DNA of 64,000 nucleotides from Escherichia coli (GTDB taxonomy: Bacteria > Pseudomonadota > Gammaproteobacteria > Enterobacterales > Enterobacteriaceae), in the NCBI RefSeq assembly GCF_029227855.1, contig NZ_CP074356.1; one strand, given 5' to 3'. The position numbers and the translations under genes were made by a program. Positions 30,818-32,374 of this stretch are shown here, one piece after another. Within the stretch, counting starts at the first letter, position 1. Every line of letters starts with the position of its first letter. The notes beneath the pieces are model-generated. The model did not search any database. It saw nothing but the letters and a program-made list of their open reading frames with translations, and was not told where the DNA came from.

Positions 30818-32374
30818 TTGATCCCGGACGTATCACAGGCGCTGGCCTGGCTGGAAAAACATCCTCAGGCGTTAAAGGGGATACAGCGTGGGCTGGAGCG
30901 CGAAACTTTGCGTGTTAATGCTGATGGCACACTGGCAACAACAGGTCATCCTGAAGCATTAGGTTCCGCACTGACGCACAAATGGATTACTACCGATTTT
31001 GCGGAAGCATTGCTGGAATTCATTACACCAGTGGATGGTGATATTGAACATATGCTGACCTTTATGCGCGATCTGCATCGTTATACGGCGCGCAATATGG
31101 GCGATGAGCGGATGTGGCCGTTAAGTATGCCATGCTACATCGCAGAAGGTCAGGACATCGAACTGGCACAGTACGGCACTTCTAACACCGGACGCTTTAA
31201 AACGCTGTACCGTGAAGGGCTGAAAAATCGCTACGGCGCGCTGATGCAAACCATTTCCGGCGTGCACTACAATTTCTCTTTGCCAATGGCATTCTGGCAA
31301 GCGAAGTGTGGTGATATCGCGGGCGCTGATGCCAAAGAGAAAATTTCTGCGGGCTATTTCCGCGTTATCCGCAATTACTATCGTTTCGGTTGGGTCATTC
31401 CTTATCTGTTTGGCGCGTCTCCGGCGATTTGTTCTTCTTTCCTGCAAGGAAAACCAACATCGCTGCCGTTTGAGAAAACCGAGTGCGGTATGTATTACCT
31501 GCCGTATGCGACCTCTCTTCGTTTGAGTGATCTCGGCTATACCAATAAATCGCAAAGCAATCTAGGTATTACCTTCAACGATCTTTACGAGTACGTAGCG
31601 GGCCTTAAACAGGCAATCAAAACGCCATCGGAAGAGTACGCCAAGATTGGCATTGAGAAAGATGGTAAGAGGCTGCAAATCAACAGCAACGTGCTGCAGA
31701 TTGAAAACGAACTGTACGCGCCGATTCGTCCAAAACGCGTTACCCGCAGCGGCGAGTCGCCTTCTGATGCGCTGTTACGTGGCGGCATTGAATATATTGA
31801 AGTGCGTTCGCTGGACATCAACCCATTCTCGCCGATTGGTGTAGATGAACAGCAGGTGCGATTCCTCGACCTGTTTATGGTCTGGTGTGCGCTGGCTGAT
31901 GCACCGGAAATGAGCAGTAAAGAACTTGCCTGTACACGCGTTAACTGGAACCGGGTGATCCTCGAAGGTCGCAAACCGGGCCTGACGCTGGGTATCGGCT
32001 GCGAAACCGCGCAGTTCCCGTTACCGCAGGTGGGTAAAGATCTGTTCCGCGATCTGAAACGCGTTGCGCAAACGCTGGATAGCATTAACGGCGGCGAAGC
32101 GTATCAGAAAGTGTGTGATGAACTGGTCGCCTGCTTCGATAATCCCGATCTGACTTTCTCTGCCCGTATCTTAAGGTCTATGATTGATACTGGTATTGGC
32201 GGAACAGGCAAAGCGTTTGCTGAAGCGTACCGTAATCTGCTGCGTGAAGAGCCGTTGGAAATTCTGCGCGAAGAGGATTTTGTAGCCGAGCGCGAGGCGT
32301 CTGAACGCCGTCAGCAGGAAATGGAAGCCGCTGATACCGAACCGTTTGCGGTGTGGCTGGAAAAACACGCCTGA
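30818..32374 (+). CDS. gshA: Glutamate--cysteine ligase
   Basis: 518 aa recognised GshA; first codon in sequence is TTG. Confidence 0.95.

Follow-up and report, generated by a model that had tools for sequence, protein, structure and literature searches.

The closest described system is the E. coli gene itself. UUG is given as the initiation codon of gshA by Sakamoto et al. (2015 PLoS One, PMC4405209), whose polyamine experiments were done with plasmid fusions in a polyamine auxotroph host. When UUG was changed to AUG in a GshA-beta-galactosidase (gshA-lacZ) fusion carrying the first 38 codons of the gene, basal synthesis rose 3.0-fold and the stimulation by polyamines fell from 2.4-fold to 1.1-fold (PMC4405209). 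The gshA(ATG) allele changed the growth and viability of polyamine-starved cells; the polyamine effect was seen mainly in stationary phase under tellurite stress, and the gene was placed in the 'inefficient initiation codon' class of the polyamine modulon (PMC4405209). The gshA sequencing paper (Watanabe et al. 1986 Nucleic Acids Res 14:4393) is reference 20 of that study. A review groups gshA with cra, cya, frr, spoT and uvrY, which like it have a UUG/GUG-dependent start, a normally placed Shine-Dalgarno (SD) sequence and polyamine-enhanced synthesis; in this class of genes polyamines enhance UUG/GUG-dependent fMet-tRNA binding (PMC7177335). More generally, about 3% of the known genes of E. 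coli begin with UUG, which ranks alongside AUG and GUG in the top start-codon tier, at 10-100% of AUG efficiency (bioRxiv 10.1101/063800).

A second instructive case is infC, which encodes IF3 and which, like gshA, uses a sub-optimal start codon as a regulatory device tied to initiation fidelity. The two differ in that infC starts at the non-canonical AUU, with IF3 regulating its own synthesis, whereas gshA has a UUG of the canonical tier; IF3 feedback is reported for infC and none is reported for gshA. Watanabe and colleagues reportedly gave TTG as the gshA start already in 1986.

The locus analysed here is the published E. coli gshA (gsh I), with an unchanged TTG/UUG start and SD and no substantive difference. 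Its start has been described and its mechanism studied before, and the picture for E. coli is unchanged: the annotation is right and regulation through the weak codon has been published. What we add is the presence of a non-AUG start in four Enterobacterales families, a strongly constrained initiation region, and a probable systematic mis-annotation of the start in Pantoea and Erwinia. [quoted passage not shown] This is the best explanation of the codon, SD, frame, gene identity, annotation and non-AUG conservation in Enterobacterales found in our analysis, and of the 3-fold effect and polyamine dependence found in the literature.

Identity of the gene

The gshA coding sequence occupies 30818-32374 on the plus strand, with 518 codons plus stop, and is identified as glutamate--cysteine ligase by profile, structure and RefSeq. 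It scores 916.3 bits against the glutamate--cysteine ligase equivalog TIGR01434 (cutoff 393.3), with residues 6-517 spanning profile positions 1-512 of 512, and aligns over residues 1-518 (1174 bits) with the chain of PDB 1V4G, the solved E. coli enzyme of 518 aa. Relative to the crystallised 1V4G construct there are six residue differences in this strain: four Cys->Ser, A168S and K372S. RefSeq (PGAP) labels the gene gshA, starts its CDS at locus position 2719, which is window position 30818, and places it between yqaA and luxS. The synteny yqaB-yqaA-gshA-(micA)-luxS is present here, and the same neighbours were found at 11 distant loci. On all membership criteria the gene is a glutamate--cysteine ligase GshA of the proteobacterial type (TIGR01434 / PF04262).

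The window comes from the E. coli chromosome: 601 nt around the gshA start match many complete E. coli genomes at 100% identity and were found in 5424 of 5426 complete genomes. No match to the gshA start region was obtained in the other two; three copies were present in at least one genome.

Start codon and ribosome-binding site

Bases 30818-30820 on the plus strand read TTG, as an earlier note on this DNA had stated, and the RefSeq CDS starts at the same base; the sequence context given in that note, ggcgggaggtcaatTTG, matches exactly, at 30804-30820. The claim that TTG is the only start fitting the full GshA N-terminus also stands. An in-frame TAA at 30788-30790 (plus strand) closes the frame 10 codons 5' of the TTG, and the nine codons between them (AAC GAT TTT GAC AGG CGG GAG GTC AAT) include no ATG, GTG or TTG, leaving 30818 as the first start after the stop; RefSeq, the orthologs and the published work (PMC4405209) agree on this position.

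The SD that had been claimed upstream of the TTG proves strong. GGGAGG at 30807-30812 (plus strand) lies a 5-nt spacer (TCAAT, 30813-30817) from the start codon, and its duplex with the 16S rRNA 3' end has a computed energy of -11.0 kcal/mol. This spacing is inside the 4-9 nt criterion for UUG-initiated bacterial genes, and gshA has the non-AUG codon with normally positioned SD that belongs to the inefficient-initiation-codon class of the polyamine modulon, its membership of the modulon coming from the published experiments and not from sequence.

In the 128 kb formed by both strands of the window, GGGAGG-N5-DTG occurs only twice, and one of the two opens the 518-codon ORF; the GGGAGG-N5-start arrangement is kept in 62 further orthologous loci. 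GGAGG itself is two-fold depleted over the whole window on both strands (39 observed, where shuffles that preserve dinucleotides give 78.6 +/- 9.0), which would fit an avoidance of SD-like sequences at internal positions. Given this scarcity and the rarity of GGGAGG-N5-DTG, the position of the SD at the head of the 518-codon ORF is not a matter of chance.

The start codon across Enterobacterales

The homologous start codon is TTG in 59 and GTG in four of 63 Enterobacterales sequences, and ATG in none; these sequences represent four families and span 64-99% protein identity. A genome scan supplied 51 orthologous loci with the N-terminus present, from genera that include Escherichia, Citrobacter, Enterobacter, Kluyvera, Buttiauxella, Cedecea, Siccibacter, Kosakonia and Tatumella, and together with the window they make 52 sequences (TTG 50, GTG 2). 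To these were added 11 loci from Erwinia, Pantoea, Paramixta, Tatumella, Pectobacterium, Rouxiella, Rahnella, Edaphovirga and Cronobacter (TTG 9, GTG 2), each with GGGAGG and a five-base spacer before the start; the sequence GCGGGAGGTCAAT is present in six of the 11. GGAGGT is invariant in an alignment of 24 genera and retained at the Erwiniaceae, Pectobacteriaceae and Yersiniaceae loci. Switches from TTG to GTG were found in three lineages (Tatumella, Pantoea ananatis and Enterobacteriaceae bacterium B14), and switches to ATG in none.

Within E. coli, the 61 nt at 30788-30848 are identical in 5406 of 5424 genomes. The other 18 have 1-3 mismatches in this 61-mer, none of them equal to the exact ATG or GTG variant, and a search of the 5424 genomes for an ATG or GTG version of the 61-mer returned no exact match. 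The start codons of neighbouring genes are equally kept in the same taxa (yqaB ATG 51/51, luxS ATG 51/51, yqaA GTG in 32/32 recovered orthologs), and conservation of the TTG is therefore unexceptional by itself. The sole hint that ATG may be avoided is that all observed switches were to GTG.

A constrained block around the start

Conservation at the nucleotide level extends from -18 (GACAGG) to codon 18, forming an initiation block at 30800-30870 (plus strand) that is nearly invariant in the DNA alignment of 24 sequences from as many genera; synonymous variation returns beyond it. Of 486 windows along gshA, codons 2-14 had the lowest synonymous codon diversity, 0.137, where the mean for the gene is 0.442. 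When each genus was represented by a single sequence (four families, 64-92% protein identity to E. coli), codons 2-9 gave 0.269 against a mean of 0.474, rank 1 of 438; the first window in this set ranked 1 or 2, and the lowest window elsewhere in gshA was 0.340. No such dip was seen at the 5' ends of the neighbours at the same loci (yqaB 0.41, yqaA 0.46, luxS 0.39). We read the low synonymous variation as a probable trace of selection on the initiation region of a weak-start gene.

Because this is the strongest synonymous constraint in gshA and the neighbours have no dip, the block may do more than receive the ribosome. One idea, which we consider distinctly unlikely, is that it acts as a cis-regulatory RNA element, for instance an sRNA or protein site or a polyamine-sensitive fold around the UUG; if true, the cis-element and the maintained non-AUG start would jointly set GshA output across Enterobacterales. 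The RNA fold computed around the start from the single sequence was no better than that of shuffles (z = -0.05), and RNAalifold gave a covariation term of 0.05, with double changes at only two pairs in an alignment of nearly invariant sequences. A literature search for sRNA control of gshA mRNA turned up nothing but the MicA/luxS paper, on the 3' end. We also considered a 5-bp mini-hairpin, GGUCA/UGAUC, that would enclose the UUG and in which A->G and C->U changes are tolerated as G-U; we rejected it as too weak and too invariant.

Starts called upstream in relatives

The earlier note had warned that non-ATG starts are easy to mis-call, and this is borne out in relatives of E. coli. Among the 120 best homolog clusters of Tatumella GshA, 52 carry an N-terminal extension from an upstream ATG, mostly of 13-14 residues and rarely longer ('MLNKNKLF..REVN'). 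The extended entries come from Pantoea, some Erwinia and Paramixta, and include Pantoea ananatis and Erwinia aphidicola. At the residue homologous to E. coli Met1 these 52 clusters have V (34) or L (18), the internal readings of GTG or TTG. The extension begins at an ATG within a conserved TTATGCT motif, with no SD before that ATG, and its 'REVN' is the in-frame reading of the SD itself (G GAG GTC AAT); in variants such as QGGN the GGGAGG nucleotides are retained and the amino acids are not. Within Erwinia, a 1-nt length difference puts the ATG in frame in E. aphidicola, annotated at 533 aa, and out of frame in E. amylovora, where a stop lies 9 codons upstream and the protein is annotated at 519 aa from the TTG; the gene body is unchanged between the two.

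That the SD is read as 'REVN', that a single nucleotide switches the frame, and that nucleotides rather than residues are conserved all indicate that the extension is untranslated leader. Judged from these sequences, the 532-535-aa GshA entries are most likely mis-annotated, with the conserved GTG or TTG as the true start. GshA starts in Pantoea, Erwinia and their relatives could then be corrected by a simple rule, the conserved SD-TTG/GTG arrangement.

Alternative readings of the start

If 30818 were a mere annotation convention, translation would begin at one of the canonical in-frame starts that follow, namely TTG codon 31, GTG codon 72 or ATG codon 79, the last having in its favour that ATG is the commonest start. 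We see virtually no chance of this. Computed with their own upstream sequences, the downstream in-frame candidates never pair beyond -7.8 kcal/mol, and codons 31, 72 and 79 have no SD-like pairing at proper spacing, the best being a mis-spaced -6.8 kcal/mol. The protein sequences of all 63 orthologs conserve residues 2-30, residues 6-30 fall within the TIGR01434 profile, and the solved enzyme is the 518-aa form. The published fusion contains codons 1-38 only, yet it is translated and responds to UUG->AUG (PMC4405209), which excludes codons 72 and 79 as the start. Codon 79, the first in-frame ATG (31052-31054, plus strand), was rejected as a candidate because it is without a properly spaced SD and would cost the protein 78 conserved in-profile residues. 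It is likewise exceedingly improbable that the true start lies 13-14 codons upstream, as deposited for Pantoea and some Erwinia (532-535 aa, MLNKNK...), with TTG or GTG as an internal Leu or Val codon. Several of the 52 clusters deposited with the extension are NCBI-named, and with no predicted terminator-like site in the yqaA-gshA interval a read-through mRNA could include the ATG. In E. coli, however, the TAA at 30788 closes the frame and the ATG (30780) stands in another one, and in the relatives the lack of an SD before an ATG that sits inside a conserved motif, the frame flip between Erwinia species over an unaltered gene body, the translated SD and the invariable V or L at the homologous position all speak against it.

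A different kind of objection accepts TTG as the start and holds that its weakness is purposeless, the codon being frozen, near-neutral and offset by the strong SD. The equally frozen starts of the neighbouring genes agree with this, as does the sizeable share of AUG efficiency that UUG can attain (bioRxiv 10.1101/063800), and an SD of -11 kcal/mol fits compensation. Against it, the UUG->AUG change alters output 3-fold and abolishes the polyamine response, and gshA(ATG) affects polyamine-starved cells in their growth and viability (PMC4405209). Moreover, ATG is one transversion away and GTG arose in three lineages, yet ATG was found in none of 63 lineages and in none of 5424 E. coli genomes. 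We place this objection on the unlikely side: the published 3-fold effect and the gshA(ATG) phenotype favour a function for the weak codon. We infer that selection actively keeps the gshA start non-AUG.

Proposed working of the start

On our preferred reading, with UUG at 30818-30820 as a weak and polyamine-responsive initiation codon, the strong, optimally spaced SD (GGGAGG, 5-nt spacer) would position the 30S subunit, and initiator fMet-tRNA would read the UUG with a first-position mismatch to give a protein with the N-terminus Met-Ile-Pro-Asp-Val. Since UUG is sub-optimal, GshA output would lie about 3-fold below the AUG level; since polyamines boost UUG/GUG-dependent fMet-tRNA binding, GshA synthesis would follow the polyamine level, with a rise that would be notable in stationary phase and under oxidative stress. 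The low initiation efficiency expected in the earlier note is thus documented for the gshA codon itself (3.0-fold more GshA-beta-Gal on UUG->AUG; PMC4405209), and the codon is not merely inefficient, being the reported basis of translational stimulation by polyamines. For glutathione overproduction or the modelling of GshA abundance, the native start is to be taken as giving about one third of AUG output and as polyamine-responsive.

Upstream motif and neighbouring features

A scan of 30550-30900 for sigma-70 promoters and terminators found no plus-strand sites, and a literature search for a gshA promoter in E. coli found nothing. The conserved TTATGCT at 30778-30784 (plus strand), whose ATG at 30780-30782 is the one out of frame in E. 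coli, is a putative -10 element, and ATTATGCT is conserved across genera in the DNA alignment. Extended to TTATGCT(T)AA (30778-30790, 5' of gshA), the conserved sequence resembles TAYRCTTAA, which we take to be the sigma-S type extended -10 consensus. A sigma-S-like -10 would fit the reported preferential synthesis of GshA in stationary phase.

On the other side of gshA, the MicA sRNA gene lies on the minus strand at 32384-32455 in the gshA-luxS spacer (Rfam RF00078, 83.9 bits), beginning 10 nt past the gshA stop; the luxS 5' UTR is antisense to MicA (PMC2956633). Upstream of gshA, the GTG start of yqaA overlaps the yqaB stop by 4 nt (GTGA, 30317-30320), an arrangement typical of translational coupling. 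Further upstream, a tRNA cluster at 28841-29603 (plus strand), downstream of csrA, consists of one tRNA-Ser and then four tRNA-Arg copies that score identically in Rfam; its spacers are repeated between copies and give spurious minus-strand ORFs. An Rfam match to naRNA4 (CssrE, a REP-derived, nucleoid-associated noncoding RNA) was found on the minus strand at 39053-39130, with 71 bits against a gathering score of 59.5.
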